Virus record (IMG/VR): IMGVR_UViG_3300019854_000029
Coordinates: 56,360 to 120,359 of that record
Source of the DNA: a virus
Strand: one strand, 5' to 3'
DNA length: 64,000 nucleotides
Shown: positions 29,096-51,359 of the stretch, piece by piece
Position numbering within the stretch: the first letter of the stretch is position 1
Layout: each line of letters begins with the position of its first letter
Made by a program: the position numbers and the translations under genes
The notes under the pieces: generated by a model
Told to the model about the DNA's origin: nothing
What the model saw: the letters and a program-made list of their open reading frames with translations, nothing else
Databases searched by the model: none

Positions 29096-29103
29096 GAGGA
29101 AAA

Positions 29104-29976: not shown

Positions 29977-29999
29977 TTTCGTTTGGTTTCCTTTCCGGT

Positions 30000-36047: not shown

Positions 36048-36093
36048 TGAGGCAGGTACCGGCTGGACTTGCTGGTTGCCGGTACCTGCCTCA
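36048..36093 (-). terminator. Strong hairpin downstream of the giant surface-protein gene (terminator without a U-tract)
   Basis: 16-bp perfect stem TGAGGCAGGTACCGGC (36048-36063) / GCCGGTACCTGCCTCA (36078-36093). Confidence 0.6.
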
Positions 36094-36195: not shown

Positions 36196-39100
36196 TCATT
36201 CTTCGTCATCACCACGCTTCTTGCGGGCCGCAAGGAGAATCCAACCCGCAACGAGGGCCATCACGCCGAACAATCCGCCCGCGACGATACCGATGTGGCG
36301 ACCAGTCCAGTTAAGGGCCTGACGGAACCACGAGGCGTTCACGTACACGTCCTTCACGGTGACCTCGCTGACGTTGCCAGCCTGATCGGTTGCCTTGAAG
36401 TGGACGTTATGCGCGGATGCGGACTGAGGAATGATGAGCGTGTACGTGTCATCCCCGCTCTTGGTTGCCTTCACGTCCTTACCGTCAAGGGTTGCAATGA
36501 GTTCCGTTGCGGTCATGTCACGCAAAGTCACTGTGGCAGTAACCTGAGTCTTACGGTACGAGCCGCCGTCAGTGATTCCACTGACCTGAATCTCAGGCTT
36601 CACGCTATCGACAACGAACGAGTAGGACAGGCGCGAAAGCTGGTCTTTGCCGCCCTCGGTTTGGGAGAACACCTGAACCGTGTAGGCACCGTCCTCCTTG
36701 AACACGCTCTTGTCCACGTGGTAGTGGTACACGTAATCCCCGTTTTCGCCTCCGGTGACGGTGACGCTCACGGCGTTCTTGGGTACCTCAATGGTCTTAC
36801 CGTTCAAGGTGACGCGGATTTCGAGCTTGTCATCGCGGAGTTTTTCAACGGTGATTTCGCTCAGGTCCACGTCGATAGGGGCCTTCACGTACTTGCCTTG
36901 GTAGGACGTTCCTTCAACGTCCACGGTGGAGCCGAAACGGTTCAAGATGAACTGGACTTTAGCGGTGTTACTGTTGCCCGCGAGGTCGGATACGGCTGCG
37001 TCCATCGTGTAGAGGTCGTCGGACTTGGCTTCATTGGGAATGACAGACAAGTCGAGGTGGCCGTTGACGACGGGGACCTTGAATGTGGTGCCTTTACGTC
37101 CCGTGAGAGTGACCGAGAGGCTACCGAGATCAAGGTTCGTATCCGAGTAGGACAAGCGAATCTCAGGGGTCTGGTAGTAGGCCGCTCCCTGAGTCACGCC
37201 TTCGATAGACAGCTCGGGCTTCGTCGTATCGACAACGAACTCTGGTTCGTTCACCGCGTTCGACTCATTGCCAGCCTGATCGGAGCTTGTTACGGCGAAC
37301 GTGTTCACTCCCTCGGGGAATGAAACGGTGGCCGTGTGAATGTTGCCCGCGTGCGACCAGCCGGAGACGAGGCCGGTGCCCGTGAAGCGCACGAGCGAGG
37401 GGTCAAAGTGGTCCTCAGTGATGGTCACTGTCGCACTGCGGGGCTGGTTGTAGTAGCGGCCCGAACGCGCGTCGTAGGTGTTCCACGATACTGCGATAAC
37501 CGGGGGAACCTTATCGACCGTGAACTGCTCAGAGTGGAAGCCCTGCGCCGCGTGTCCAACGGTGTCGGAAGCGTCCAGAGAGAACTCGTAGTCACGGTTG
37601 TCTGCGAACGTCATGGTGTTGGTCCACATGTCGCCGGTCTGGGTCCATGCGCCAAGCTCACCGGCCTGCCCGCTGATCTTGAACAGGTCGGGGCTGAAGT
37701 TCGCGTCCAAGACCTTGATCGTCGCGTGGCGGTCGGTGTTGTACATGTTGTTCGCGTTGTTCACGTCGAACGTGACGCTCATTTCGGGGGCGGTAGCGTC
37801 GATAGAGAACTGGACTCGCTTCTCAGCGGAGCCGCCAGCGTTATCTTCTACGCGCACCCATGCTTCAGTGTTCTCGTGGTCGCCGTTCACTTCGAGGGGG
37901 ATAGTGATGCCGGTGACGAGGTTCTTGTCTGTGCGAGTGACGTGTACTTGCGGGTTGGACACGTGGCCGTCAATGTCTACGGTCGCGTCCCCGAGAGTGT
38001 CAGCGCCAATACCCCAAGCGACGTGACGTAAACCGGAGTGGCCTGCGCTCGCTTCGAGGTTTGCCTTCACACTGTCGCGGTACAAGCCAAGCCCACTGCG
38101 GGTGTGAGTAACCGGCTCGGGGAGGGCAATGTTCACGTCGTTAGCGGTGATGGTCGTGTTCCCGTTTTCAGACACGAGACCGTCAGGCTGGGCGACGAGA
38201 GACAGGTTGCGCGCCTTGTCGGAGGCCACTGCTGAAACGAATCCCTTGAACCCGTCAGGAATGTCGATAGTGGCACCTTCGGCGGCTTCCACAGTGTGAG
38301 TCGTGCCGTCCGAGGAGCGGAGCGTGTAGGTGATCTTGTCTACGCCGGAACCGGTTTCAGTAACGTGCGCTGCGACCTTCATTTTTCCGGTGACAAAGAA
38401 CCCGTAACGAGAATCAGAGCCGCCGATGGTCTTACCGGGCGCATACGTCGGGTCAGTGATCGTGAACCCAGAGACAACGGGAGGAGTGCTGTCAATGGTG
38501 ACGGTGGCGATACTGGTCGAGGTTGAGCCAGCAAGGTTAGTGACATCAAACGTGATCTGGTACGTGCCGTCGGGCAGTCCCGCTGCACGCGCATAATCCA
38601 AAGTGACCTGCTTGACAGGGACAGGCTTGTTTTCTTCCGCACTGGGCTTACCTTCAGCGAGGGTAATACCGTTGACGGACACCTTGAACTTCTTGATGCC
38701 CTTCGCGTCACGCATGGTCGCCGTCTTAGGGGCGAAATCCACGAGGGACTTCGCATACGGGAGGTAACTGTCACTATCGAGGCTGAACGTGGGAGCGTTC
38801 GACGAGTAAATGAACTTGTGGGGCCAGCCGAGAATGTCACCAATGTTGAGGCGCTTTTCGCGTCCCACAGCGTCACGGACAGTAACCTCAACATTGTCCA
38901 CGTCCCCGTTATGGATGGTGAGCGTGTTCCCACTGATGTCAAGGTTTGCGCCCTGATTCTTCACGCCGCTCGCGTCTTTCAGCGTGTACGGCATGGGGGA
39001 ACCGTCAGTGGGAGTGAACGTCACGCTAATGCCCTTCTTGTTCGTGTACACGCCCCACGGGGTAGGGGTGAACACGTCACTAGAGCCTGTCGTGAGCTTG

Positions 39101-40221
39101 TAGTCCGACTGTGCGGGCGAGTACGCGAGGTTCGCGCTCCATGAGACAGTGTTTCCCGCACGATCATGGCCGGTGAATGAGAGCACGTGAGCGTGCTTAT
39201 CTTCCAGCGTGGACTGGGGAACCTTGAACTTGTACTCGGTTGCACTTGCTCGCTCGGGGGTGAGGGCAACACCGTCAAGGGTGAACGTCATGTACGAGGG
39301 CTTGAGGGCACCATCGTCGTGGAACTTGAACTCAAGGTCGCCAGTGAGCTGGTCGGTAATGTACTTCACGCCGTCAATTTCGCGTGCGCCAGCGACCTGC
39401 GCGGGCAAGTCGAGAACGGGGTTCACTGCGTCCGGGGGAATGACTTGGCCTTGCGGGAAGTCGATGGTGGATTCCTTACCCGCGTTGTCGAATGCTCGGA
39501 CCTTGTAGGAGCCGGGAGCGGTGATGGACAGGCTTGTGACCTTATCAGTGTTGCCAGACAGGTCTACGGTCTGGACAACGTTCCCGTCTTTCAAGAGTTC
39601 GGCTCGGGCGAGGCCAGATGAGCCGGTGGTTGATGCGTCGTTGACGCGCACAGTCCACGTGACAGCAGAGGTGGAGAGTTCACAGTCGTCCGCGTTGTTT
39701 GCGCCGCACCCACTGGCCGAGATGCTGCTGATGGTGGGGGCAATCGTGTCGTACATGTGGCCGATAGCGGTACTCAGCGTCCACTTGAGGTTCGCTCGTT
39801 TGGGCAGACCGCCAGCGGTCGTGGTGGTGTGTACGGCGATAGCTGCTTCATCAAAGTTCTGGATGGGAGCGTTAGCGAGGTTCACGGTCACCGTGTCGCC
39901 GTCTACGGGCAGCGGGTTTTCGTCCCCGTTGAATGTGACCTTGGACAGGGTTTGCCCTGCGGGGAGCGTGAGTTTGACCTTCAGCGTGGGGGCTTGCGCG
40001 TATGCGGTGAGCGGGGCCGCTGGCGCGTCGGGGGTCACGTCGGTAATGGTGCCGACCACGCCGTTGTCTGTTGCTGTGCGCGCTGTTTCAGGCGTGGATG
40101 GGGCGCTTGCGGGCGCTAGGCCGAACGCGGTGGTTGCGGGGAGCGCGGTCGCGGGTAGCGTGGTTGCGACTGTGGCGAAAAGTGCGAGCGCCGCTGTGGT
40201 GCGCGTCGAGTACTTCATCAT
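36196..40221 (-). CDS. Giant surface protein (~1340 aa) with ~9-10 bacterial Ig-like repeats and a C-terminal membrane anchor
   Basis: Signal peptide MMKYSTRTTAALALFATVATTLPATA. A recurring D.AGN motif ends the repeats (FDNAGKES, HDRAGNTV, SDQAGNES, SDLAGNSN, TDQAGNVS...). The C-terminus is LNWTG-like + a hydrophobic helix + ARKKRGDDEE. I prefer the start at 40221 (AAGGAC upstream). Confidence 0.7.
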   Translation of the reverse strand: MMKYSTRTTAALALFATVATTLPATALPATTAFGLAPASAPSTPETARTATDNGVVGTITDVTPDAPAAPLTAYAQAPTLKVKLTLPAGQTLSKVTFNGDENPLPVDGDTVTVNLANAPIQNFDEAAIAVHTTTTAGGLPKRANLKWTLSTAIGHMYDTIAPTISSISASGCGANNADDCELSTSAVTWTVRVNDASTTGSSGLARAELLKDGNVVQTVDLSGNTDKVTSLSITAPGSYKVRAFDNAGKESTIDFPQGQVIPPDAVNPVLDLPAQVAGAREIDGVKYITDQLTGDLEFKFHDDGALKPSYMTFTLDGVALTPERASATEYKFKVPQSTLEDKHAHVLSFTGHDRAGNTVSWSANLAYSPAQSDYKLTTGSSDVFTPTPWGVYTNKKGISVTFTPTDGSPMPYTLKDASGVKNQGANLDISGNTLTIHNGDVDNVEVTVRDAVGREKRLNIGDILGWPHKFIYSSNAPTFSLDSDSYLPYAKSLVDFAPKTATMRDAKGIKKFKVSVNGITLAEGKPSAEENKPVPVKQVTLDYARAAGLPDGTYQITFDVTNLAGSTSTSIATVTIDSTPPVVSGFTITDPTYAPGKTIGGSDSRYGFFVTGKMKVAAHVTETGSGVDKITYTLRSSDGTTHTVEAAEGATIDIPDGFKGFVSAVASDKARNLSLVAQPDGLVSENGNTTITANDVNIALPEPVTHTRSGLGLYRDSVKANLEASAGHSGLRHVAWGIGADTLGDATVDIDGHVSNPQVHVTRTDKNLVTGITIPLEVNGDHENTEAWVRVEDNAGGSAEKRVQFSIDATAPEMSVTFDVNNANNMYNTDRHATIKVLDANFSPDLFKISGQAGELGAWTQTGDMWTNTMTFADNRDYEFSLDASDTVGHAAQGFHSEQFTVDKVPPVIAVSWNTYDARSGRYYNQPRSATVTITEDHFDPSLVRFTGTGLVSGWSHAGNIHTATVSFPEGVNTFAVTSSDQAGNESNAVNEPEFVVDTTKPELSIEGVTQGAAYYQTPEIRLSYSDTNLDLGSLSVTLTGRKGTTFKVPVVNGHLDLSVIPNEAKSDDLYTMDAAVSDLAGNSNTAKVQFILNRFGSTVDVEGTSYQGKYVKAPIDVDLSEITVEKLRDDKLEIRVTLNGKTIEVPKNAVSVTVTGGENGDYVYHYHVDKSVFKEDGAYTVQVFSQTEGGKDQLSRLSYSFVVDSVKPEIQVSGITDGGSYRKTQVTATVTLRDMTATELIATLDGKDVKATKSGDDTYTLIIPQSASAHNVHFKATDQAGNVSEVTVKDVYVNASWFRQALNWTGRHIGIVAGGLFGVMALVAGWILLAARKKRGDDEE

Positions 40222-40235
40222 GTCTGGTTTGTCCT

Positions 40236-40817
40236 TTAGTTTGCGGTCCAACTGGACAGTTCTTCTATTAGTAATACGCGCTCAAGGGGATTCTCGGGAG
40301 TTACGTGAGCGCTTTCGTCAAGGAAGTTCGTGTGTTCTTCTTCATTCCCTACGCCTTGTGGGGCTTCTAGGAACGAGGTGGGGAGTTCTTCGTAATCGCT
40401 TGGGGTCTCCTCTTGCACTGGGACGGTTGTTGGCTTGGGTTCGGGTTGCACCTGCGGTTCAGGCACGGACTGTACCTGCACGGGCGGGAGCGTGGGTTCT
40501 ACCCGTGGAGGCTCTTGCTGCGGGATAGTGACGACGGGCGGAGGCGTGATGTCACCGGTCGTGGGGGCAAGATTGCCTGTTGTCAGGTGAGGCATTTGCT
40601 CACCCGCGCTGCGTGCCGCGAGCCGCGTGTACGTGTCGGTTGCGCTTTGGGTTTGCACCATGCGCGTAATGTCGCTGACTGCATCACGGTATGTTGCGCC
40701 AGAAATGCGCTTACGCATGGCTTTAAGGTCCCAGCGGATACTGAGGAACGCTGCCGTGAACAAGAACGCGAGAGCGAGGAATACGAGGATGAGCGCCGTG
40801 ATCGTGTAGGTCGTCAT
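40236..40817 (-). CDS. Single-pass membrane protein (193 aa) with a Pro-rich region
   Basis: N-terminal TM segment ALILVFLALAFLFTAAFL. 4-nt overlap with the kinase gene. Confidence 0.6.
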   Translation of the reverse strand: MTTYTITALILVFLALAFLFTAAFLSIRWDLKAMRKRISGATYRDAVSDITRMVQTQSATDTYTRLAARSAGEQMPHLTTGNLAPTTGDITPPPVVTIPQQEPPRVEPTLPPVQVQSVPEPQVQPEPKPTTVPVQEETPSDYEELPTSFLEAPQGVGNEEEHTNFLDESAHVTPENPLERVLLIEELSSWTAN

Positions 40818-42520
40818 TTTTGGTCCCCGTTCTCTTGGAAGAGCGTCGCAATGGTTGCTTTCGTCTTGTCGATCTTCCCCGCGAGTTCTTTAGCGAGTTC
40901 TTGGGGGCGACCGGCCTTAAAACCTTGGTGCTGCGAGAGGTAGGTTTGCGCTCGCTGCATTTGCTTGTCCATATCGTCCTTCGTCACGCCGTCACTTTTA
41001 AGACCATACGGGTTAGAGGTGATGGAGTCGAGAATATAGTTCAACACCGTGAGCTGGATGACCTCACTACTTGAGGACGTGTCGAGGCCCGTGAGGTTGT
41101 TCCAATACGTGCGGTACATGCCGGTGTCGCCGCCGGTTTGTACGGCTGAGGCGATATCACGGTTGAACGAGGCGAGGTTGTACAGGGCGGTTGCCTGCTG
41201 CGTGTTGTATCCGCCGTCGATAGCGTCCTTGAACCACGGTGCCGACAAGGTGAGACCGGAGGCTCCGCCGTCCCCTTGGTAGAAGAACCAATATGCCTCT
41301 CCGATACGGTATGCGAGTTCGGGGTAGCGCTTGTTCTTTTGGATTTCGTTCACGTTGTCGCGGACGAGGGGGATGAGGGTGCTTTCTTCTTGTGACGTGA
41401 AAACGCCGTCCCCTTGGATTGCCGCGTCGATAGCGTGGAAATAATTGTCAATGTCGCCGGGCTTAGCTTCAATGGCTTTCGCCCATCCGTCTACGGTTCC
41501 AGCTTTCTCGGCGGACGCGACGAGGGCCGTGTAGGAACTGGATTCCACGCTGTACCCATAGGCGAGGGACGCGCCCGCGCCACCAAAGCACAGTAAGCCA
41601 GCCACGGCGAACGCGATGATCGCGCGCACGCGGCTTTTCGCTGCTTTCACATGCTTTTCGTCGGTCTGCTTGTAGGTGGAGAGCGCGGCGACGACTTCCG
41701 TCATGGACTGGTAGCGTCGTTCGGGCTGCGTTGCGACGCACCGTGCGATGACGCGCGACAGTGCGGGGGACACGTTGGGGTTGATGACGCTCGCGTTCAC
41801 GGGGCCAAGAGGAACACCTTGAGCATCCATCTGCGGGAGACGGCCCGTGAGGAGCACGAACATCGTCATGCCGAACGCATAAATGTCACTACGCGGGTCT
41901 AGTGGTGCGCCGGTTGTCCGCTGTTCGGGGGGCGCGTACCCGCGAGTTCCGACAGCTTGGGGGTTCGTGTAGTTGTTTGGGGTGATCTGCTCGCTGATAC
42001 CAAAGTCCAAGAGCTTGATCGCACCGTTGTCGAGCATGACGTTACCGGGTTTGAGATCGCGGTAGATGATCGGCTCGGGCAGTGAGTGTAGGTAGATCAA
42101 GATGAGCGCGAGCTGCGTCATTTTGGAGACGACGAAATCTTCGGGGAGTTGCCCACCGGGAGCGTTTTTTGCGACCTTATCGAGGGAGGTTCCCGCAACA
42201 AAGTCCATGAGGACGCTGTACAAGCCGCCCGGCGTGTTGGTGTCGTCTTGCACGTCGATGATGTGGGGGATTCCCGCGTGGGAGAGTCCCTGCATGAGCT
42301 GGGTTTCAGCTTTCAGACTGTCGAGGACTTTCTGGGCTTGGAGGAGTTGCCGCCCACGGTAGGAGCCGTCGGGGGCTGCGACTTCTTTGAGTGCGACGGG
42401 TTTTTGGAGTTTCGTGTCGTAAGCACGGTAAACGCGGCTGAACGTGCCGTCGTGCATGAGCGCGTCGATCTGGTAGCGCCCGTGGAGGAACGTTGTTCCT
42501 ACTTGTCTCGGCGTGGTCAT
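40814..42520 (-). CDS. Hanks-type Ser/Thr protein kinase with a TM segment and a ~250-aa extracytoplasmic domain
   Basis: VALKEV (catalytic Lys), YRDLKPGNVML, LLDFGIS, GTRGYAPPE. TM segment AIIAFAVAGLLCFGGAGASLA followed by a helical-repeat-looking C-terminal domain. Confidence 0.85.
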   Translation of the reverse strand: MTTPRQVGTTFLHGRYQIDALMHDGTFSRVYRAYDTKLQKPVALKEVAAPDGSYRGRQLLQAQKVLDSLKAETQLMQGLSHAGIPHIIDVQDDTNTPGGLYSVLMDFVAGTSLDKVAKNAPGGQLPEDFVVSKMTQLALILIYLHSLPEPIIYRDLKPGNVMLDNGAIKLLDFGISEQITPNNYTNPQAVGTRGYAPPEQRTTGAPLDPRSDIYAFGMTMFVLLTGRLPQMDAQGVPLGPVNASVINPNVSPALSRVIARCVATQPERRYQSMTEVVAALSTYKQTDEKHVKAAKSRVRAIIAFAVAGLLCFGGAGASLAYGYSVESSSYTALVASAEKAGTVDGWAKAIEAKPGDIDNYFHAIDAAIQGDGVFTSQEESTLIPLVRDNVNEIQKNKRYPELAYRIGEAYWFFYQGDGGASGLTLSAPWFKDAIDGGYNTQQATALYNLASFNRDIASAVQTGGDTGMYRTYWNNLTGLDTSSSSEVIQLTVLNYILDSITSNPYGLKSDGVTKDDMDKQMQRAQTYLSQHQGFKAGRPQELAKELAGKIDKTKATIATLFQENGDQK

Positions 42521-43230
42521 AGGAGTTCTCCGGCGTTGATGAGGATTGCTGTGATGTTGTCGCTTTCCCCGTTCGCAATGGCCCTGCCTGCGAGGGTTTC
42601 AAGGCCGGTTTGCGCATTGCCGGGGAGGTAGTTGTTTTCTCGCTCAAACTCATGCCAGAACCCGTCCGAACACAGGAGGAAACTATCGCTGGCAGAGTAT
42701 TCACCGACGTAGGTGTCGGGTCGGGCTTTCTCACTGTTACGGTGGCCGAGGCCACGGGTGATGCTACTGCGGTATTTCGCGTGAATCTGGGGGGTGATTT
42801 CAACGCCGCGTTCACGTAGTTCAGCGAGTTTACTGTGGTCTCGGGTGAGTTGGAGGGCTTGGCTACCTGCTTTAAGCATGTATGCGCGCGAGTCTCCAAC
42901 ATGAACGATGGTGTAGCGGCCCATGTAAGCACGCAACACGGTCAGGGTCGTGTTCCCGGCTGCTTCGCGTGCTTTCTGGTGCGCGCGGGCGACAGCTTGG
43001 ACGAGTTGCCCGTCTGAGACGTTCCCGGTTGCTACGAGGTCGAGGAATGTTTGCCCCGCGCCGATGGACGCGAGGCGACCGTTGGGACCTTCACCACCAA
43101 CACCGTCTGCGACGAGCGCGACTATGCCGGTATGCCCTGCGGCCTCAAACAGTGCTGCCGCGTAACTGTCTTGGTTTTCTCGCCTGCCGTTAACGTTCGT
43201 GTAGGTGGAGACAATGTCGGTGATGCTCAC
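42517..43230 (-). CDS. PP2C-family Ser/Thr phosphatase
   Basis: NQDSY..., ALVADGVGGEGPNGRLAS, VHVGDSRAYM, LLCSDGFW, SDNITAILI. ATGA overlap with the kinase gene. Confidence 0.85.
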   Translation of the reverse strand: MSITDIVSTYTNVNGRRENQDSYAAALFEAAGHTGIVALVADGVGGEGPNGRLASIGAGQTFLDLVATGNVSDGQLVQAVARAHQKAREAAGNTTLTVLRAYMGRYTIVHVGDSRAYMLKAGSQALQLTRDHSKLAELRERGVEITPQIHAKYRSSITRGLGHRNSEKARPDTYVGEYSASDSFLLCSDGFWHEFERENNYLPGNAQTGLETLAGRAIANGESDNITAILINAGELL

Positions 43231-44318
43231 AGTTCCTCCATGATCTCGAATGGGATGTCTCCAAGAAGAAGAGAGTGTACGGGGAGACTGGTTTCCACGG
43301 GCACGTTGGGGGAGAGCACGTGTGAGCCGAGTTTCGTTTTGTTCGTGGAGCCAAGGTCGGTGATCGTGATGGTTCCGCGCTGGGGGTTGATGTCGAGGCG
43401 CGCGTGGTGGCGGCTGATGACTCGCTTCGCGTCACCGTGTCCGACGGGGATTTCACTGGACGTGGGGGAACGTCCGATGATCGCCGGGTGCGTGGGAACC
43501 GGGTAGGTTTCCCCGGTGACGAGGTTGCGGAGCACCCACTGTGAAGTGTCTGCTTCTTCGTCGAGGAACCCGGTGAGTTCGTCTGCGTCGCTGTAGGTGA
43601 CGGGCGCGGGCTGCGGGGGTGGCATGTGGATGGGCATGTCGGTGGGTGCGGGCATCACGGGAACCTGCGGGGTGGGTGCTGTTGCCGGTTCCACCACCGG
43701 CTGAGGCATGGGAGGTGCCTGTTCGATGACGGGTTCAGGTACCACGACGGGGGCTTCTTCAACCACGGGCATCATGGGTTGCGGGGGCATGATAGGCTCC
43801 GGCTCTACCACAGGCATAGGCTCGGGCTGTGGGGGCATAACAGGTTCCGGCTCGGGTTCCATCACGGGCATAGGAGCGGGCTGCATGGGTTCTTGCGGGG
43901 CGGGGCCACCGTAAGCTGCGATGAGGTTCGCCGGAGCGCACGCGGGGAACGTTTGGATGGGCATATCGACAACGAGGTCACTGATGGACGCGGGAGAGGG
44001 CGCATCGAGGAGGGGCTTGCGCTTATTGCGCGCAAGATACTTCGTGATGCTGTCCCACTGGGCTGCGATGTCTTTGGAAATGAAGTCCCACAGGTCGAAT
44101 CCTGTGTTCGCGCCGGGGTTGACGACAACCCACACGTGGCCTTCACTGTTGGCTGCGAAACCTACTGCGTCACGCCAGTTCCCGCCTTCCTTACGGAAAG
44201 CGTTCCATGCTGCGACGACACTGTTCAGTGCGTCGGGTGTGGGGCATCCGTTGATGGGGGTGAGGCCAATGTTTCGCGCGTCTTTGGCGAGTACTGCGGT
44301 GTTGATGGGAGCGTTCAT
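43227..44318 (-). CDS. FHA-domain protein (unknown N-terminal domain, Pro-rich repeat linker, C-terminal FHA)
   Basis: The C-terminal ...AIIGRSPTSS...VISRHHARLDINPQRGTITITDLGSTNKTKL... is a canonical FHA core. The linker repeats PEPxMPPQPxMPVVE. Confidence 0.8.
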   Translation of the reverse strand: MNAPINTAVLAKDARNIGLTPINGCPTPDALNSVVAAWNAFRKEGGNWRDAVGFAANSEGHVWVVVNPGANTGFDLWDFISKDIAAQWDSITKYLARNKRKPLLDAPSPASISDLVVDMPIQTFPACAPANLIAAYGGPAPQEPMQPAPMPVMEPEPEPVMPPQPEPMPVVEPEPIMPPQPMMPVVEEAPVVVPEPVIEQAPPMPQPVVEPATAPTPQVPVMPAPTDMPIHMPPPQPAPVTYSDADELTGFLDEEADTSQWVLRNLVTGETYPVPTHPAIIGRSPTSSEIPVGHGDAKRVISRHHARLDINPQRGTITITDLGSTNKTKLGSHVLSPNVPVETSLPVHSLLLGDIPFEIMEEL

Positions 44319-44323
44319 CGGTG

Positions 44324-44527
44324 TTAGTCCTTTTCCGTTTGGACGACGGTTAGGAGCTTTTCTGGGTCGATGTCAGCTTCCCTGTAGTACCAATGCCCTC
44401 CGGGGGACTGGTATGCGGTGAGTTTTCCTTGTCGAGTCCAGTTTTTAAGTGTCTCTCGACTGATTCCTAGTTTTTCGGCTGCTTCCGCGACGGTGAGCAG
44501 GCCCTCAAAAAGTTGTGCCATGCCCAC
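44324..44527 (-). CDS. Excisionase/MerR-type helix-turn-helix DNA-binding protein (67 aa)
   Basis: LLTVAEAAEKLGISRETLKNWTRQGKLTAYQSPGGHWYYREADID matches the excisionase-family HTH pattern. Confidence 0.7.
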   Translation of the reverse strand: MGMAQLFEGLLTVAEAAEKLGISRETLKNWTRQGKLTAYQSPGGHWYYREADIDPEKLLTVVQTEKD

Positions 44528-44569: not shown

Positions 44570-45655
44570 TTAGGCGGCGACGGGTGTTTTCGCGAGGTGT
44601 TCGGCAACGAGAATGTTCGCCGCTGCGCCCACACGGCGGGGCGACATAGAGGGGTTAGCGGAGCGTACTTGCTCATAGAACATGTCGAACAGTCGGCTGC
44701 GTTCACGCGATTCTGCGTCCTCTTCGGCATCGAGCATGGCTTCTACGGCAGCGTCTTGCCTGCTGCGAGCTTCTTCTGCCTGCTTGCGGGCCGCTTCCTG
44801 CTTCTGGGCGGGCGACACGTCGGGGTTGATCTTGTTTTCCATGCGGAAACGGAGGAAAGCGAACATGTTATGCACGTTGGACGGCATACCCTCGCTGAGG
44901 ATTGACGCGATTTCTACGTGCATCCACCCGATGTTGAGGCGAGCTTGGACAAGCTGGTACATTTCCTCGATCTGCGTGTCAGTCCACGCTTCTACGCCCA
45001 CGCCTTGAGGCATACACGAGGCGACGATCTCACGCTTAGAACGCCCATTACGGGCACGGGCCTGCATCGCTGCTTCCGCTTTGAGAACACGTTCACGCTT
45101 ACGAGCATTCATACGCTTTTCGCGCTTACGGGCACGGGCTTCCTTAATCGCCGCGCGCTCTTCGCTAGTGGAGCGAACGTAGGCAACAGCGTCACGAACA
45201 GTGGAAGCAACCTGCTCAATGGGAGACTCGATCTCTTCCTCAGCAACAGGCTCAAGGAGAATAAGCTCAGGGGCTTGCGGTTCCCACGGGCCGAAACGGT
45301 TAATGGTTACAGGCTTACGGGTAGAGCCGTCATAACGGTAGCCTTCAAGCCACATTTCAATGGTCGGAATGTGAATCGTGTGTACTGCGCTAGTGCGGTG
45401 CTTCACGCCGCGAGCGTCCGTCCAGTACCGGTGCTGGGTGTGCATGAGACCGAGTTCCCTGAAGCGCTTGAGTACTTTCTCAAGGTAGCTTTTTGAGCAT
45501 CCGATCTCGCGGGACATCGTGTCTAGGCTCTTCCAAATCTGCCACGAGTTCTCGTTAGCGTTTTTAACGAGATAGAAGAGAATATCTTGTTCCTTGAACG
45601 TCATTGCGATGACGGTGACGATGCTTTTAGCTGCACGGATTAGTGCGCGGGACAT
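44570..45655 (-). CDS. Winged-helix DNA-binding protein (361 aa), candidate replication initiator or replication-relaxation protein
   Basis: AAGGAG RBS. The N-terminal domain ...SREIGCSKSYLEKVLKRFRELGLMHTQHRYWTDARGVKHRTSAVHTIHIPTIEMWLEGYRYDGSTRKPV is paralogous to 46181-46597. The function is inferred from architecture and position only. Confidence 0.4.
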   Translation of the reverse strand: MSRALIRAAKSIVTVIAMTFKEQDILFYLVKNANENSWQIWKSLDTMSREIGCSKSYLEKVLKRFRELGLMHTQHRYWTDARGVKHRTSAVHTIHIPTIEMWLEGYRYDGSTRKPVTINRFGPWEPQAPELILLEPVAEEEIESPIEQVASTVRDAVAYVRSTSEERAAIKEARARKREKRMNARKRERVLKAEAAMQARARNGRSKREIVASCMPQGVGVEAWTDTQIEEMYQLVQARLNIGWMHVEIASILSEGMPSNVHNMFAFLRFRMENKINPDVSPAQKQEAARKQAEEARSRQDAAVEAMLDAEEDAESRERSRLFDMFYEQVRSANPSMSPRRVGAAANILVAEHLAKTPVAA

Positions 45656-45750
45656 AAAAAATACTCCTTGGTATTAAGAAGAATCATTGCGTGCTTCATA
45701 GGCTATAGCCGCTCTCCCGGTCTGTCAAACACGGGGAGGAAAAAATTTTT

Positions 45751-45816
45751 AGGCCCAGTTGGAATGAACCAACCGGGCCTAACGCAAATTCTTCTTAACT
45801 CACGAGGAGTTAAGAA
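45751..45816. other. Two adjacent strong hairpins in the divergent intergenic region (ori/oriT candidate)
   Basis: AGGCCCAGTTGG (45751-45762) / CCAACCGGGCCT (45769-45780), 12 bp with 1 mismatch. TTCTTAACTC (45792-45801) / GAGTTAAGAA (45807-45816), 10 bp perfect. Confidence 0.6.
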
Positions 45817-46054
45817 AATAATCCCACGTAACCACAGTGTTTGCAACTGTTACCACGCGATTCCAGCTAAGAGTTTCCTGCAATCTGCCATGACGAGACC
45901 TTGACGCGCGCCACTACCTGTTCGCCAACTCTAAAAGCATTTGAGAAAATATTTCCCCCGCCGTTAGGCGGTAGATCTATCAGTCGCACTGCGTCCACAC
46001 ATGGGGGGAGGGGGTTATTCTTCATTATTCTTCTTCTATTCACTAAAGGTATAT

Positions 46055-46090
46055 ATAGTGCTCTTCCCTATAGTGCTCTTCCCTATAGTT
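46055..46090 (+). repeat. Tandem 15-bp direct repeat ATAGTGCTCTTCCCT x2.4, preceded by an AT-rich ATTCTTC-repeat tract
   Basis: Copies at 46055-46069 and 46070-46084, plus a partial copy at 46085-46090. The upstream 46016-46040 reads TTATTCTTCATTATTCTTCTTCTATTC. Confidence 0.8.
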
Positions 46091-46180
46091 CTACTCCGGT
46101 TTTACCAGTTGTCCCAATAAAAACACGCGACTAATCCGCCCCGTGTAAACACGTAACAACAGTCAGTAAGGAAGTACCCC

Positions 46181-46597
46181 ATGTGCGTACAACAGCTCAT
46201 CAACGCGGGTGAACTAGCTCCATATATCGGACTAAGGCCACGACTCACTAGGCTCTTAGAACTTCTTGCTAAATATGCCGGTGAAAAAACACAACAGCTT
46301 TGCTGTAGCCAAGAAACCCTCGCCGCGCACCTGTCATGCTCTGTTAGGACTATTTCTCGCGACCTTCACACGCTTTCGTCTCTAGGTCTCATCCACGTGC
46401 AGCCCCGGTACTTGGAGGATCGTAAGCACGTTAAGCACCGCACGACTGATGTCATCACGGTTCATATCCCTACCGTCGCTGAGTGGGACGCGGGCGTTCG
46501 CTATGACGGTTCTACTAGGCCAGCAATTAAAAACGCTAACTACTGGCGTGCTGGCGCTCCCGACATCATTGAAGTTCCTATGGCTCCCGAGAAATAA
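46181..46597 (+). CDS. Winged-helix DNA-binding protein (138 aa), paralog of the N-terminal domain of 44570-45655
   Basis: AAGGAAG RBS. ...LSCSVRTISRDLHTLSSLGLIHVQPRYLEDRKHVKHRTTDVITVHIPTVAEWDAGVRYDGSTRPA aligns with the Rep-like protein on the other side of the intergenic region. Confidence 0.6.
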   Translation: MCVQQLINAGELAPYIGLRPRLTRLLELLAKYAGEKTQQLCCSQETLAAHLSCSVRTISRDLHTLSSLGLIHVQPRYLEDRKHVKHRTTDVITVHIPTVAEWDAGVRYDGSTRPAIKNANYWRAGAPDIIEVPMAPEK

Positions 46598-46853
46598 ACA
46601 GACCCCCTCGCAACGCGAAACCTAATCGCACACAAACTAAGGGGCCGTTCGACACGAAACCGAACAGCCCCTGTAAGTATTACCTTTACCTTTCTAGTCG
46701 CCTCTGTAGCTTGTAGCAGATTAGGAAAAACTCTTACAAGTAGCTACACCGCGTTCTCATCGCTCAATGCGTGAACGGGCATCGAGATAAAAAGAACCGC
46801 CCGGCACGAAAACATCTTGAAAATAGCGCGCTAATATGCTTCGCTTCTATATA

Positions 46854-46926
46854 GCGGCTGTAGTTCAGTTGGTAGAGCACCCGGATATGGACCGGGAGGT
46901 CGCGGGTTCGAGTCCCGCCATCCGCG
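46854..46926 (+). tRNA. Atypical tRNA gene; anticodon reads AUG (His codon CAU) in a manual cloverleaf
   Basis: Acceptor GCGGCTG/CATCCGC (C5-U68 mismatch), D stem GTTC/GAGC, anticodon stem CCCGG/CCGGG with loop ATATGGA, variable AGGTC, T arm GCGGG-TTCGAGT-CCCGC, discriminator G, no encoded CCA. Confidence 0.6.
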
Positions 46927-46980
46927 CTGATGAAAGTCTCAAAGCCTTTGCAACGATTACAAGCAAAGACCGCTGTTCGC

Positions 46981-47385
46981 CTACATCTTTTTACCGGCTA
47001 GGGCCTCTAGCATCCGCAGCATTTCTTCTTCAGAGACCTCGGCTTCTTTTGCGATTGCCTTAAACTCCTCCGTGTTACCTGCGGCGTAGTCGAGGAGGAG
47101 CCGCGCACCTTTCGGGGTAATCTGCACCATTTCTTCGCAGCGGATACTCTCGTGGAAGGAATCGGGCAGTTCAATCCTTCCGCGTTTTTCGAGGCTGAGG
47201 AGCGCTTCGATCACATCATGTTCAGTACTGCCAATTACTCGCGCGATATCTTCCGGGTGGTCAAGGATGCGGGTGAACGAGCCAGTTGAGCCTCCGGTTA
47301 GATAGTAGAGGACTCTTTCTTCGACTGGCGAGAGCGGTGACTGTGGGCGGCGGGCGCGGTTTTTACGTGAGGGGCGCACTGACAT
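46981..47385 (-). CDS. Winged-helix (MarR/ArsR-like) transcription regulator (134 aa)
   Basis: LSPVEERVLYYLTGG...FTRILDHPEDIARVIGSTEHDVIEALLSLEKRGRIEL follows a wHTH pattern. It is divergent from 47543-47959. Confidence 0.45.
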   Translation of the reverse strand: MSVRPSRKNRARRPQSPLSPVEERVLYYLTGGSTGSFTRILDHPEDIARVIGSTEHDVIEALLSLEKRGRIELPDSFHESIRCEEMVQITPKGARLLLDYAAGNTEEFKAIAKEAEVSEEEMLRMLEALAGKKM

Positions 47386-47507
47386 TGAGGTTCCTTTTCT
47401 TGCGAAAGCGGTGTCTTTATTGAATGTTACGTGGCGTGTCAGTGAGGTTTCTAAACGCTAACTGCTTATTGCGAGAGGCTTGTGTTGAAACGAGTCAACG
47501 AATAGTG

Positions 47508-47536
47508 TTGCACGTTCCTATAACTGGTAGTATCAT
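47508..47536 (+). promoter_or_regulatory. Sigma-70-type promoter TTGCAC-N17-TATCAT, positioned for a leaderless transcript
   Basis: The -10 ends 6 nt before the ATG at 47543, so the expected start site falls at or next to the start codon. No SD is present. Confidence 0.5.
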
Positions 47537-47542
47537 GAGCGT

Positions 47543-47959
47543 ATGAGCCGAAACCGAAACCACACTAACCAGCAAATTAAAGCGTGGGTACTCGCCTACT
47601 ACAAGGCCTACGGATGCTGGCCCACCCAACGCGAAACGCGCGTCGCACTCCGATGCTCTATTGATCGCGCAGTCATTGCGATCAAGGAAGCTAAAAACGA
47701 CCTCGCTAACGGGGCGGAACAAAGGTTCGCTAAAGCCCTTGCCATATACGCCGGGTTCCGTAGCTTAGAGGACGCTTTTACACACATTGACACTTTGACC
47801 GAGAAGCCGGTAAGTCGCCAGAGAAAGAACGACCTGCGGGCCTTAGTCACAATCCTCACTGGCACTGCCCCAAGTTACAGCCTCACCAGCGAGGAGCTGC
47901 GCGACATAATCCGTGCCAATACCAAACCAACACCAATAACCAACACTGAACAGGAATAA
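47543..47959 (+). CDS. Hypothetical protein (138 aa), possible DNA-binding regulator
   Basis: First gene of the plus-strand accessory block. N-terminal QQIKAWVLAYYKAYGCWPTQRETRVALRCSIDRAVIAIKEAK is vaguely LexA-N/wHTH-like. Confidence 0.5.
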   Translation: MSRNRNHTNQQIKAWVLAYYKAYGCWPTQRETRVALRCSIDRAVIAIKEAKNDLANGAEQRFAKALAIYAGFRSLEDAFTHIDTLTEKPVSRQRKNDLRALVTILTGTAPSYSLTSEELRDIIRANTKPTPITNTEQE

Positions 47960-47963
47960 AACC

Positions 47964-48479
47964 ATGTCCCTGACAACTATCTTCTTCCCACCGCAGCCGG
48001 TGCTACTCGGTCTCACTATCGCGCTCCCAATTCTCGTGCTGGTCGCGTTCGTCTCGCGGAAGATCGCCGTAAATCTCAATGAGAAGCAAGAAGCGCCGTC
48101 CATCGCAGAAGTGATCTTGTATGGCATTTCCTCTGTCAGCAAGCTGCTGGTAGCGCCGCTCGCAGTGTACGTTCTCTACACTGGTGGGTTCTGGCTATTC
48201 ACGAACGCTAGTACCGATTTCTGCCACACACTTGGTCAAATCGGCAGAGTCTTGTTGGTACTACTTTTTGCAGCAGCTCTAGTTCTATCAGTTGTAGCGG
48301 CCTCCGTGGGTGCGGGGTTGCACAACATTGAGGCGGATGCAGAGCTTGAGGACTTGGAAAACAACCGCGAATACAAAGCCCTAAAGGCCATAGATAAGGC
48401 TCTTCCTCCCGTAGAGGTGCGCGTGAGCGCAGCTCTTGCTCTCGGCCCGCTTTTCTTTGCCATTGTCGCCGTATTTTAA
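47964..48479 (+). CDS. Small polytopic membrane protein (171 aa)
   Basis: About four hydrophobic helices. It starts 5 nt after the upstream stop. Confidence 0.6.
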   Translation: MSLTTIFFPPQPVLLGLTIALPILVLVAFVSRKIAVNLNEKQEAPSIAEVILYGISSVSKLLVAPLAVYVLYTGGFWLFTNASTDFCHTLGQIGRVLLVLLFAAALVLSVVAASVGAGLHNIEADAELEDLENNREYKALKAIDKALPPVEVRVSAALALGPLFFAIVAVF

Positions 48480-48499
48480 CCACTAAAGGACACTAAAAA

Positions 48500-48826
48500 A
48501 TGAGTCGCCGTAAATACACGAACCTGATGATCGTCACCTCGATCAAGCAGTTAATCTCTTCCCGCGTCTCGCGGCCCACACCTGAGCTTGTCGCTGAGAC
48601 AGAACGCTTCCTCAAACAGTGGCGTGACCCGGAAGAAATCGAACCAGCCGAAGGGCTACTTCTCAGCCGGGAAAAGCTCTATGCAATCCGCGCAGCCTAC
48701 AAGCGCAGTGGTTACGCGGGGCCGCTCATCGGCTTGTTCGACGAACTGGAACGCAACGTTGAGGCCGCTTTCAACGTCAAGCGAGGGAAGAAGGGACTAC
48801 CAGCATGGGTGCTAGGCGCGGCATAG
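48500..48826 (+). CDS. Hypothetical protein (108 aa)
   Basis: ATG preceded by AAAGGA. No motif recognised. Confidence 0.55.
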   Translation: MSRRKYTNLMIVTSIKQLISSRVSRPTPELVAETERFLKQWRDPEEIEPAEGLLLSREKLYAIRAAYKRSGYAGPLIGLFDELERNVEAAFNVKRGKKGLPAWVLGAA

Positions 48827-49284
48827 CCCGCGAACTCCACGCTTACAGTGCCGACAGTGAGTTCACTGACCTGCTGAAAGGCCGCTACATCACTGACATT
48901 GTTGACGATGAAATCCTCGTCCTCGACAACGGCATGTGGCTCCACATTCAGACAGAGAATGAGGACTGTAAGGGTGGCACGTTCATCCAGTACCTCAACA
49001 TTTGTGGCAGGAATGATGCGCGTATCATGTCCGCGCGCCTCGTCGATGACTACGAGGAAAACTCGCGCTCGTTCACCACAGATTTAGTGACATATACGTT
49101 GTTCGTCATGGTCAACGACATGGAACGCCCCGTCCTCAAAATCGCCCGAGAGGACGCGCCCTACTACCCGCGTGGCTTCACGATCACCGCCTACGTCTCC
49201 CAAGACGCTTACATAGATCGCTGGTACCACATGCGCGAACACTCCAACACGTCGAGCAGCCGTTTCAAGTGGCTGAAACGCTAA
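48805..49284 (+). CDS. Hypothetical protein (159 aa), paralog of the N-terminal domain of 54879-55943
   Basis: LLKGRYITDIVDDEILVLDNGMWLHI...DARIMSARLVDD...YTLFVMV...GFTITAYV aligns with LLRGRYVTSIDNDVITLDNGIELHI...KARIMSAYVDCD...YTIFVIV...GFTLTATI. Confidence 0.6.
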   Translation: MGARRGIARELHAYSADSEFTDLLKGRYITDIVDDEILVLDNGMWLHIQTENEDCKGGTFIQYLNICGRNDARIMSARLVDDYEENSRSFTTDLVTYTLFVMVNDMERPVLKIAREDAPYYPRGFTITAYVSQDAYIDRWYHMREHSNTSSSRFKWLKR

Positions 49285-49300
49285 ACCGAAAGCACCCAGA

Positions 49301-49780
49301 ATGTTTTTCCCTACGCTCGCGACAGAAACACGCATTTTCCTCACTGTGAGCATCATGCTCCTCGGACTAGCAGGCACACTATCGCTGGCAAACGTCTACC
49401 ACTTGTATGACCAGAAAGACGTGGCGTGGACGCTCAATAACTTCCACATGCCGCTTAATCTAACGAGCAAGATCACGGCGGTATTGATCTGGTTGGGAAT
49501 CGTCCTAAACGCAGTGTATCTAGTGCTAACGTACCGGACTAACGCGGGCGTGCCGGGAGAAAACCTGTCCCACATTTCCATGATCGCCGCGCTCACGTGT
49601 TTCGCTGTCCCGCCAGCGTTAACTCGGCTACTGATCGACCTCACCGCAAAGCGCAGTAAGCACGTGAAGCAGTGTTTCGAGTTCCCGAAATGGTTGAACT
49701 GGCTGGCTTACGCGCCCTCCGTCATCATCACAACAGCAGCGTATGTGACTCTCTGGTTCGCATACCTGCACGAAATCTAA
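49301..49780 (+). CDS. Small polytopic membrane protein (159 aa)
   Basis: Four hydrophobic helices. Confidence 0.6.
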   Translation: MFFPTLATETRIFLTVSIMLLGLAGTLSLANVYHLYDQKDVAWTLNNFHMPLNLTSKITAVLIWLGIVLNAVYLVLTYRTNAGVPGENLSHISMIAALTCFAVPPALTRLLIDLTAKRSKHVKQCFEFPKWLNWLAYAPSVIITTAAYVTLWFAYLHEI

Positions 49781-49811
49781 ACCAAACAAAACCCGGAAAG
49801 GACAACCAATC

Positions 49812-50300
49812 ATGACTCTCTCTGTTAAGCGTCGTGACGACATTCGCGTCTCTAATCTCGTTGAGATGCTGCCGCTCATCGAAATTCCGGACACCGAACC
49901 GCTGTGGGACGACCTAAAGAAAGCGCGTCTAATCGACTCAATCTTGAACAATATTCCCATCGGCCAGATTTTCCTCATGCCCCATCCGCGTCAAACCATC
50001 GGCCCAAGCGGCTGGGCGTATGAGTATCGGATTCTCGACGGCCACGACCGACTCAACGCCATTGCAGACTTCGTGAACGGAAACCTCCTATTGGAGGACG
50101 ACTTCAAGCTCTTTGAGAATGAGTTCGTCCAAGCGCGAGGAATGACGTTCAAGGACCTCAAGGAGGCATATCCGAGGCTTGCAACGCGCTTCGTGAACTA
50201 CCAGCTCGATATTCAGGTCGTTGAAGCGAGTAGCAAGCTCGAAATCGCCCGCATGTTCGAGCGAATGGGCATCGACAGTTACTGTTTTGGACGAGAGTAG
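49812..50300 (+). CDS. DUF262 (ParB/GmrSD N-terminal)-like protein, 162 aa
   Basis: ...WDDLKKARLIDSILNNIPIGQIFLM...YRILDGHDRLNAIADFVNG... matches the DUF262 pattern with DGQQR changed to DGHDR. No DUF1524 partner domain is present. Confidence 0.5.
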   Translation: MTLSVKRRDDIRVSNLVEMLPLIEIPDTEPLWDDLKKARLIDSILNNIPIGQIFLMPHPRQTIGPSGWAYEYRILDGHDRLNAIADFVNGNLLLEDDFKLFENEFVQARGMTFKDLKEAYPRLATRFVNYQLDIQVVEASSKLEIARMFERMGIDSYCFGRE

Positions 50301-50360
50301 ACAAGGGGAGCCGTCGTGAGAGATCGCGGCGGTCCTCTTGGTTTTGCTGCTAAAAGACAT

Positions 50361-50399
50361 TTGCTTGCACGCTGCCATACTGCTACAATTTAGGTACAC
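50361..50399 (+). promoter_or_regulatory. Promoter module copy P5 (TTGCTT-N17-TACAAT followed by TTAGGTACAC), the best copy
   Basis: Near-consensus -35/-10 with TGc as an extended -10. The core GCCATACTGCTACAATTTAGGTACAC (50374-50399) is shared with five other operon heads. Confidence 0.65.
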
Positions 50400-50460
50400 G
50401 GCTAGTGTAAAGAAAGCCGATAAACTCAATCCACGCAAACCACATAAAGGCAATAAGACC

Positions 50461-50682: not shown

Positions 50683-50713
50683 AAAGTGAACGCGGCAAGT
50701 AGTTGCCGCAAAT

Positions 50714-50786: not shown

Positions 50787-50831
50787 CCGCCACAAACCAA
50801 AACATAAAACAACAACAGGAAAGAGAAGATC

Positions 50832-51326: not shown

Positions 51327-51359
51327 CAGCCCAGAAAACGCGGAAAGAAAACCAGACCA

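Follow-up and report, generated by a model that had tools for sequence, protein, structure and literature searches.

A kinase, PP2C, FHA and Ig-giant gene set resembling predicted type VII secretion components, without a type VII motor, on an element with a pXO16-like conjugation block

The sequence considered here is a 64,000-nucleotide stretch (hereafter, the window) of the IMG/VR virus record IMGVR_UViG_3300019854_000029, positions 56,360 to 120,359. It covers about half of an element of ~120 kb; absences reported below for the window are read from that half, in which Pfam scans covered all large and most small open reading frames (ORFs). The subject is a cassette of five genes encoding an FHA protein, a PP2C phosphatase, a membrane-anchored Ser/Thr kinase, a small membrane protein, and a giant surface protein with immunoglobulin (Ig)-like repeats. 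Its nearest known relative, as judged by sequence and gene order, is the TseJ/TseF/TseD/TseH/TseI set of two predicted type VII secretion systems (T7SSs), T7SSd and T7SSe. In the window the cassette is found without a type VII motor, together with a type IV secretion system (T4SS) of the tip type known from the conjugative Bacillus plasmid pXO16.

Seven tightly packed, co-oriented ORFs run from 45655 to 36196 on the minus strand, as the initial annotation had described. They encode a Rep-like winged-helix protein (44570–45655; a weak Pfam match to RP-C, E = 8e-4, below cutoff), a small excisionase/MerR-like DNA-binding protein whose helix-turn-helix (HTH) assignment is well supported (44324–44527; HTH_17, Pfam E = 1.3e-15), the FHA protein (43227–44318; Pfam FHA at residues 280–341, E = 3.9e-9), a PP2C/PPM Ser/Thr phosphatase (42517–43230; Pfam PP2C_2 and PP2C), a bitopic Hanks-type Ser/Thr kinase (40814–42520; Pkinase, E = 3.7e-33), a 193-residue single-pass membrane protein (40236–40817; no Pfam family), and the Ig giant (ORF 36196–40251; Pfam Big_13, Big_3_3, and Big_3_2). 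Five nucleotides separate the HTH gene from the FHA gene, and the three 4-nt overlaps that had been taken to imply translational coupling are present at the FHA/PP2C (GTGA), PP2C/kinase (ATGA), and kinase/193-residue-protein (ATGA) junctions. For the Ig gene, the ATG at 40221 is the most probable start codon, in agreement with the initial annotation; this leaves a gap of 14 nt after the preceding gene.

On the 3′ side of the Ig gene, a hairpin with a perfect 16-bp stem lies at 36048–36093 (minus strand). Its predicted free energy (−37.3 kcal/mol, vs. −15.8 ± 2.9 kcal/mol for shuffled sequences; z = −7.5) bears out its description as strong, though for want of a T-tract it does not qualify as a canonical intrinsic terminator. 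Just upstream of the Rep-like gene, at 45749–45782, lies a second hairpin that is terminator-like and has a T-run, and the two hairpins thus bracket the seven genes. The first gene of the T4SS block (30000–30761) lies ~5.4 kb downstream of the run, beyond eight unannotated ORFs. No plasmid matched the 8.3-kb region by megablast.

The kinase consists of a cytoplasmic kinase domain, one transmembrane (TM) segment (residues 301–319), and a C-terminal ectodomain of ~245 residues, close to the ~250-residue outside domain first proposed. It has the catalytic Lys (K45), the YRD155 and DFG172–174 motifs, and PPE198–199 in place of APE; across 20 aligned members of the family there is no variation at K45, D155, K157, N160, D172, G174, P198, or E199. 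An AlphaFold2 (AF2) model of the ectodomain is all-helical, with 14 helices (pLDDT 93.4, pTM 0.90). A structure search with this model, as the initial annotation had suggested, yielded no significant fold in the PDB (Foldseek; best E = 0.1, TM-scores ≤0.45); the sub-significant matches are all TPR or helical-repeat proteins, and a sequence profile detects one TPR-like motif, so that the outcome is a TPR-like resemblance. The ectodomain is not recognizably of EssB/YukC type, as the confident model has no significant PDB match, and no PASTA domain was found in the ectodomain by Pfam, by profile, or in the AF2 model.

A phmmer search of the ectodomain against 1.84 billion representative sequences returned only 243 clusters, nearly all of proteins of 530–600 residues with the same kinase–TM–ectodomain layout, and gut Clostridia, Coriobacteriia, and Bacillus plasmids harbor relatives that match over the full length, ectodomain included. 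A scan of genome contigs seeded on the kinase motifs retrieved mostly generic kinases, with family members only at loci L006–L011. In PADLOC, the kinase domain and the HTH protein give generic matches to the defense models PD-T4-6, mad6, and mad1, with a further generic match to the PP2C fold. An anti-phage defense reading was rejected, as the matches are confined to these generic kinase, HTH, and PP2C folds and the remaining parts of MADS or PD-T4 are missing.

The other two signaling proteins are likewise intact at the level of their motifs. The FHA domain has the residues for binding of phosphothreonine (pThr), in the segments GR 282–283, SRHHA 302–306, and STNKT 324–328, with R283, S302, H305, and N326 in the pThr pocket. 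The phosphatase matches the Stp1/IreP-type NCBIfam model with 101 bits, which is below the cutoff, and includes the PPM motifs RRENQD (16–21), DGVGG (42–46), GDSR (112–115), SDG (188–190), and DN (224–225); it is homologous to PP2C proteins encoded at T7SS-linked loci. Because the catalytic or pThr-binding residues of all three proteins are kept, and given the established properties of Hanks kinases, PPM phosphatases, and FHA domains, real phospho-signaling is expected from these sequences.

The N-terminal domain of the FHA protein is less tractable. Its assignment as a divergent DUF6382 was rejected (no Pfam match at E ≤ 1; hhalign probability 0.1%), unlike the FHA proteins of pXO16 and of T7SS-linked loci, which carry DUF6382. 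The structure search that had been proposed for this domain came to nothing, as only near-identical homologs could be retrieved and the resulting AF2 model is unusable (pLDDT 38). The Pro-rich linker of the protein varies in length among near-identical copies of the element, in which the proteins range from 279 to 374 residues.

The 193-residue protein, which had been described correctly as a small Pro-rich membrane protein, has an N-terminal TM segment (residues 9–27) followed by a basic stretch and a Thr/Pro-rich tail with 25 Thr residues that is probably cytoplasmic, judging from this arrangement. Sequence similarity is detectable only to sister elements; in all relatives, an ORF of 140–260 residues without Pfam matches occupies the same position between the kinase and Ig genes. 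The Ig giant agrees in size and repeat content with the ~1340-residue surface protein first proposed (1341 residues; Big_13/Big_3 repeats), with a signal-peptide-like N-terminus and a TM segment at residues 1312–1330. Over its C-terminal ~550–800 residues it is conserved with the kinase-adjacent Ig giants found in IMG/VR elements, in pXO16, and at T7SS-linked loci, and its N-terminus is variable among relatives. Downstream of the Ig gene, sister elements carry genes for adhesins, pilins, and sortases.

Comparison among relatives indicates that the conserved module is five genes, from FHA to the Ig giant, and not seven. In sister elements, co-oriented genes for a ParM-like protein and proteins of ~450, ~210, and ~490 residues are followed directly by the FHA gene, which places the Rep-like and HTH genes outside the conserved unit; their inclusion in the unit by the initial annotation is thus not sustained. 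In the window, the ParM block and the FHA gene are separated by an insertion of 11.7 kb comprising the HTH_17 gene, the Rep-like gene, and an island on the plus strand. The HTH_17 gene is found in near-identical copies of the element and is absent from sister elements. The Rep-like gene, which also has a weak PHROG match to “replication initiation O-like” (6e-5), is 65–98% identical among IMG/VR copies that are otherwise 95–99% identical, and from this it looks like a hot spot of recombination or diversification. The proposal that the triad of kinase, phosphatase, and FHA protein belongs with the giant Ig protein holds: kinase, PP2C, and Ig giant co-occur in nearly every relative examined.

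T7SSd and T7SSe have been defined by bioinformatics only and are predicted rather than experimentally studied systems (Garrett 2024, microLife, PMC11217815). T7SSd, of Actinomycetota, comprises TsdA, C, D, H, and I; T7SSe, of Bacillota, additionally has TseA2, B, F, J, and K (PMC11217815). Among these, TsxD is a membrane-anchored, active kinase whose ectodomain is helical, TseF is a PPM phosphatase, and TseJ is a DUF6382-FHA protein. TsxH, encoded beside the kinase, has one TM segment and an unstructured tail; TsxI is an Ig-like giant that begins with a Sec signal and has a TM segment at its C-terminus, and for it a wall-spanning role like that of EsaA has been proposed (PMC11217815). The ATPase of these systems, TsxC, is a multi-domain protein of EssC/EccC type with N-terminal FHA domains (PMC11217815).

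The window cassette has the same five parts in the same local order, with homologous kinase, PP2C, and Ig C-terminus. The kinase agrees with TsxD in its conserved active site, membrane anchor, and helical extracellular C-terminal domain, the cytoplasmic PPM/PP2C phosphatase corresponds to TseF, and the Ig giant shares with TsxI the Sec-type N-terminus, Ig-like domains, and C-terminal TM segment. The correspondence is looser for the remaining two: the FHA protein is without the N-terminal DUF6382 of TseJ, and the 193-residue protein is TsxH-like in architecture and position, with no sequence similarity beyond sister elements. The cassette differs further from T7SSd/T7SSe in that the window has no TsxC (EssC) ATPase, WXG100 protein TsxA, or ubiquitin-like TsxB/TseB, and in that it belongs to an element with a tip-type T4SS and a kinase of a separate, plasmid-borne clade. 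The initial annotation had compared the triad with PpkA/PppA/Fha1 of type VI secretion systems (T6SSs) and with actinobacterial PknB/PstP/FhaA. The likeness to both is at the domain level only (membrane Hanks kinase, PP2C, FHA reader): Pfam scans of the examined window ORFs returned no T6SS families, LPXTG proteins and sortase substrates mark a Gram-positive context, and the kinase has neither PASTA domains nor FtsW or PBP neighbors. They are analogies rather than relatives, and the T7SSd/T7SSe set is closer.

The neighborhoods of kinase relatives fall into two classes: chromosomal T7SS loci, and large mobile elements without a T7SS motor, among which is the window. In Hominisplanchenecus murintestinalis, genes for HTH, DUF6382-FHA, PP2C, kinase, 145-residue, Ig giant (2349 residues), and 66-residue proteins precede EssC. 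In Agathobacter rectalis, Ig giant, PP2C, kinase, small-protein, and FHA genes are followed by WXG100, EsxB, TNT toxin, Imm59, YukD, FHA, and EssC genes, and a Coriobacteriaceae metagenome-assembled genome has kinase, 163-residue-protein, Ig giant, and WXG100 genes in succession. The window kinase, PP2C, and Ig C-terminus (500–800 residues) match such T7SS-linked loci with E-values of 1e-12 to 1e-72. The 252-kb record NZ_CP143948.1 (loci L002/L086), labeled A. rectalis “plasmid unnamed1”, carries rplA, rplK, nusG, secE, rpmG, fliD, and a methionyl aminopeptidase gene; by this gene content it looks like a chromosomal segment, and the T7SSe locus there is better regarded as chromosomal.

In the mobile-element class, the type VII motor is absent wherever it was sought. 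No EssC, WXG100, LXG, or YukD family, and no immunity-type family, was found by Pfam among the window ORFs scanned, and the only FtsK-family gene of the window encodes a 718-residue single-domain ATPase without FHA domains. EssC is absent within ±10 kb at 46 of the 47 kinase loci in IMG/VR, the exception being a 16.5-kb T7SS contig. A DNA pattern for the Walker-A motif of EssC domain D1 matched 53 IMG/VR contigs, of which the positive control was the only one with the cassette; a scan seeded on an EssC alignment found just the known T7SS contig, its patterns being uninformative. WXG100 and YukD queries from related T7SS loci gave no tblastn match on the IMG/VR loci or pXO16, a search of limited sensitivity for such small proteins, and in the complete pXO16 record neither the annotation nor tblastn with T7SS-locus queries reveals EssC, WXG100, or YukD. 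Plasmid carriage of the new T7SS variants has been stated to be unknown (PMC11217815); since the survey by Garrett et al. was anchored on EssC, motor-less plasmid modules lay outside its view.

What accompanies the cassette instead is a conjugation block of tip type (12285–30761, minus strand), recognized by Pfam and by collinear tblastn matches to pXO16. Its first gene encodes a YdjM-like hydrolase (30000–30761) and is followed by genes for 290- and 266-residue membrane proteins, a 1596-residue polytopic giant (23372–28162), an NlpC/P60 hydrolase (22476–23369), proteins of 331, 441, and 400 residues, a VirB4-like DUF87 ATPase (16430–18706), a 317-residue protein, an FtsK/EssC-like single-domain ATPase (13132–15288), and, at the end, SpoVG (12285–12578). 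For the genes in 13132–30761, by far the best matches in the plasmid database are in the 350-kb pXO16 of Bacillus thuringiensis (VirB4-like, 31% identity over 89%, E = 6e-91; FtsK-like, E = 3e-43), and nine window genes match the pXO16 tip region, around the origin of the record, in order (E = 8e-4 to 4e-127). The same tip gene order is repeated in metagenomic relatives.

The pXO16 plasmid of B. thuringiensis sv. israelensis and its tip locus have been reviewed (PMC9673590, PMC6199540). The tip locus is a 25-kb conjugation locus, delimited by bioinformatics and experiment, that encodes a novel T4SS with ATPases and a hydrolase acting in pXO16 transfer; self-transfer has been demonstrated for pXO16 itself, and the cell-wall hydrolase TipB is needed for its efficient transfer, and neither a relaxase nor oriT has been identified (PMC9673590). 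The likeness of the window to pXO16 extends beyond the collinear genes for the YdjM-like hydrolase, polytopic giant, cell-wall hydrolase, VirB4-like and FtsK-like ATPases, and SpoVG: pXO16 also has FHA, PP2C, kinase, and Ig giant genes and the ParM-like block, mostly co-oriented genes, and no recognizable relaxase. Its DUF6382-FHA gene (WP_000508139.1) lies at 127.9 kb, PP2C (WP_000464419.1) at 130.4 kb, the kinase (WP_000175465.1) at 142.1 kb, and a 2402-residue Ig giant (WP_000410278.1) at 144.8–152.0 kb. The two elements differ in size (350 kb for pXO16, about 120–130 kb for the window element), protein identity is only about 20–34%, and the pXO16 cassette is interrupted by other genes and located ~150 kb from tip. 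Homologs in pXO16 were found for only four sets of window genes, namely the T4SS block, the cassette, the ParM-like gene with a 514-residue protein, and a TQ-ester adhesin domain; the cassette thus survives between elements of ~20–34% protein identity and very different hosts. It is unmentioned in the searchable open-access literature on pXO16.

Human metagenomes contain the window element at high prevalence: at 90% identity its proteins fall into clusters of 150–800 members, one variant of the YdjM-like gene occurs on 661 contigs, and the longest contigs cluster at 117–136 kb. It has a GC content of about 57%, encodes LPXTG proteins, and has no recognized relaxase. The element is catalogued as viral in IMG/VR; identity as a phage was rejected on finding no virion-type PHROG matches among ten large unknown proteins.

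Scans of IMG/VR, which were pattern-seeded and met many fragmentary contigs, so that all counts are lower bounds, found the tip VirB4 gene on 55 contigs and the kinase family on about 47, with both on 33. The shared contigs comprise seven copies of the window element, five of a sister element of ~137 kb, and 21 distant elements of 77–284 kb. In the sister element (kinase 53% and VirB4 40% identical), the two genes have the same order and orientation and are about 28 kb apart; in the distant elements they are 50–160 kb apart. At every IMG/VR kinase locus a PP2C gene lies upstream, and at nearly all of them an Ig-giant gene lies downstream. In a neighbor-joining tree without bootstrap, the plasmid-borne kinases, including that of pXO16, form one clade apart from the chromosomal T7SS-linked kinases, with L167/L168 as the exception.

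The initial annotation had placed the cassette directly upstream of the T4SS genes, correctly for the window, and had connected it to conjugation. In close relatives the triad is neither absent nor unlinked: the synteny holds in 7 of 7 near-identical copies and in the 53%-identity sister element, with order and orientation relative to VirB4 kept. Adjacency and synteny are lost in distant relatives and in pXO16. The connection with conjugation is one of elements and not of operons: cassette and tip-type T4SS share a contig in no fewer than 33 of the 47 IMG/VR relatives, and pXO16 carries both.

Taken with the gene content, this distribution inclines us, with moderate confidence, to the view that an envelope module of T7SSd/T7SSe type, without its type VII motor, is part of the backbone of a family of pXO16-like conjugative megaplasmids of about 100–350 kb, where it would probably control or build the mating apparatus. 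Previous knowledge is limited to the prediction of the module in T7SSd/T7SSe and one bitopic (pseudo)kinase precedent in a Gram-positive T4SS. That precedent is TraF of pIP501, an EssB-like bitopic pseudokinase essential to Gram-positive conjugation; most Tra proteins are recovered in its pull-downs, and the authors point out the similar bitopic arrangement of TsxD kinases (PMC13037476). The EssB/YukC pseudokinase of T7SSb, in turn, binds the FHA domains of the ATPase (PMC13037476, PMC9600267). The window kinase resembles these proteins in topology only (cytoplasmic (pseudo)kinase domain, one TM segment, extracellular domain); it differs in its intact active site, its accompanying phosphatase and FHA reader, and its TPR-like ectodomain, for which no PDB entry, EssB included, is a significant fold match. 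For TraF there is the further difference that the tip and pIP501 T4SS types are unrelated.

A possible mechanism follows by analogy with pIP501 TraF and with T7SSb, in which EssB docks on the EssC FHA domains and EsaA reaches across the wall. The bitopic kinase, beside the C-terminal anchor of the Ig giant, would form a membrane hub from which the conserved membrane-proximal stalk of the giant would span the wall, with its variable tip pointing outward. A signal perceived at the TPR-like ectodomain, such as the state of the envelope or contact with a cell, would lead to Thr phosphorylation of disordered cytoplasmic tails, for which the tail of the 193-residue protein, the juxtamembrane region of the kinase, and the disordered N-terminus of the FtsK-like ATPase are candidates. 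By reading the pThr marks, the FHA protein would recruit the mating apparatus or license its assembly, and the PP2C would reset the switch. Whether adhesin display or T4SS firing might also come under such control, as was first suggested, is conjecture at this stage.

The FtsK-like ATPase deserves separate comment. Its N-terminus is disordered and rich in Ser, Thr, and Gly and is followed by one or more TM segments, and EssC-like FHA domains, which were looked for, are absent. It scores slightly better with EssC/EccC models (8e-9 and 2e-8) than with FtsK (9e-7), all far below cutoff, a weak hint that the tip coupling ATPase might be of the T7SS branch. A more far-reaching version of the favored reading, which we offer tentatively as a possibility, is that the conjugation machines of pXO16 and other tip elements are T4SS–T7SS hybrids in which a phospho-gated module derived from T7SSd/T7SSe is integral, together with the VirB4-like ATPase and the single-domain EssC/FtsK-like ATPase. 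Cooperation of both kinds of part in plasmid transfer has a precedent from monoderm or mycolate hosts, in the conjugative plasmids of mycobacteria: those of the pRAW type need T4SS-like and T7SS (ESX) loci (Ummels 2014, as cited in PMC13037476). As described in that citation, the pRAW type has a complete ESX system with EccC and Esx substrates, and differs in this from the window, where only the kinase/phosphatase/FHA/stalk subset is present.

Several considerations weigh against the envelope-module reading. In all elements, the step from cassette to transfer is drawn from genes rather than from experiment, and 22 of the 55 VirB4 contigs showed no kinase in the pattern-seeded scans of fragmentary contigs. 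In distant relatives and pXO16, the 50–160 kb between cassette and T4SS make the linkage one of elements rather than operons, and backbone status could equally reflect a role in maintenance, exclusion, or host interaction. With respect to the T7SS parallel, the N-terminal domain of the FHA protein is not the DUF6382 of TseJ, the modeled ectodomain does not match that of EssB/YukC, and the FtsK-like ATPase has no FHA domain, so that the T7SSe logic of a kinase docking on the FHA domains of the ATPase is not directly transferable. WXG100 and YukD proteins, being small and divergent, could have escaped Pfam and tblastn.

The alternative that survives best, which we consider somewhat unlikely, is that the cassette is a self-contained envelope sensor with a surface fiber, working apart from the T4SS in exclusion, niche adhesion, or sensing of envelope stress or phage, with pThr regulating display of the Ig protein. 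Such autonomy would suit five tightly spaced, translationally coupled genes with their own flanking hairpins, the non-conserved position relative to the T4SS, and the adhesin, pilin, and sortase genes that follow the Ig gene in sister elements. The generic PADLOC matches of the kinase domain and HTH protein to PD-T4-6, mad6, and mad1 point the same way, but they extend to the generic kinase or HTH fold only, the other MADS and PD-T4 parts being absent. In addition, the part of the Ig giant that is conserved is the C-terminal stalk common to secretion systems, which suggests a component of a machine over a simple adhesin, and pXO16 has separate giant LPXTG adhesins with a sortase that probably fit its aggregation locus better.

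Action in trans is a further alternative, and an improbable one: the module would work with the T7SSd/T7SSe ATPase encoded by the host chromosome and would alter secretion or targeting, for example in interbacterial competition, apart from conjugation. All characterized non-plasmid contexts are indeed T7SS loci with EssC, WXG100, and LXG/TNT toxins, the variable N-terminal tip of the Ig giant is as might be expected of a targeting part, and the window reading covers about half of the element. Nevertheless, the plasmid kinases form an old clade of their own rather than being nested among host T7SS kinases, the module persists in pXO16 and in no fewer than 33 metagenomic elements with no T7SS motor or substrate nearby, and no WXG100, LXG, or immunity-type Pfam families occur in the window. 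That the cassette is a functionless, decaying remnant of a plasmid-borne T7SS, as the missing motor and substrates might suggest, is highly improbable given that the catalytic and pThr-binding residues are all intact, that the ORFs are full length and translationally coupled, and that hundreds of near-identical copies retain the module, as do relatives down to about 30% identity, including Bacillus pXO16.

The envelope-module reading bears on a poorly understood matter, namely how Gram-positive conjugation crosses the cell wall and is switched on; pXO16 itself is without a known relaxase, oriT, or most structural parts. The kinase/PP2C/FHA/Ig-stalk set, one of four gene sets common to pXO16 and a prevalent ~120-kb element, points to a testable regulatory and structural component of that machine. 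The same module apparently can serve both protein secretion of type VII and DNA transfer of type IV, or has moved between the two, which extends the TraF/EssB observation from a pseudokinase to a full phospho-signaling set. A literature search found no description of the full active kinase/PP2C/FHA/stalk set as a motor-less backbone of pXO16-type conjugative megaplasmids and, in line with the initial annotation, no paper on a Thr-phosphorylation switch for Gram-positive conjugation. If the hybrid proposal were true, this would be the first threonine-phosphorylation checkpoint for conjugation and would provide the first functional handle on the TsxD/F/H/I/J proteins. Since pXO16 is genetically tractable, the hypothesis is directly testable there.

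Some further features of these elements were recorded. In pXO16 (NZ_CP045024.1), the ~25-kb region at 263.7–289.5 kb (L300) encodes two LPXTG/isopeptide giants, namely a 2560-residue VaFE-repeat surface protein and a 3526-residue isopeptide-forming fimbrial protein, together with a class A sortase, a C39 peptidase, and Ig-like proteins, and fits the described aggregation (agr) locus better than the kinase cassette does; identification of the cassette with agr is probably wrong. A TQ-ester LPXTG protein of the window (50–1495) matches repeats of this pXO16 region. On the chromosome of Thermocaproicibacter melissae (L088), genes for FHA, PP2C, kinase, 179-residue, 162-residue, and 1992-residue Ig proteins are followed by genes for a second DUF6382-FHA protein and a 344-residue protein, with a short TraG/VirD4-like ORF (251 residues) in place of EssC, possibly another pairing of the cassette with T4SS-type genes.

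The ParM/actin-like block of the window (56035–60621, minus strand) begins with a ParM/PRTRC_D-like gene (59446–60621), followed by genes for proteins of 421, 168, and 514 residues, the last of which is bitopic, with WG repeats and an outside domain of ~400 residues. The block, which could serve in partition or be part of an envelope apparatus, is also kept in pXO16, at 242.5–248.4 kb. The plus-strand island between this block and the cassette (45668–55943) encodes HTH_36, GmrSD_N/NsnA-like, ASCH, and DUF7448 proteins and small paralogous ORFs, and may be a defense or accessory island. Its paralog pairs are 48805/54879 (DUF7448), 50832/51360 (44% identity), and 50338/51889; the GmrSD_N/NsnA-like ORF is located at 49812–50300, and a separate GmrSD_C ORF lies at 10716–11462 on the minus strand.

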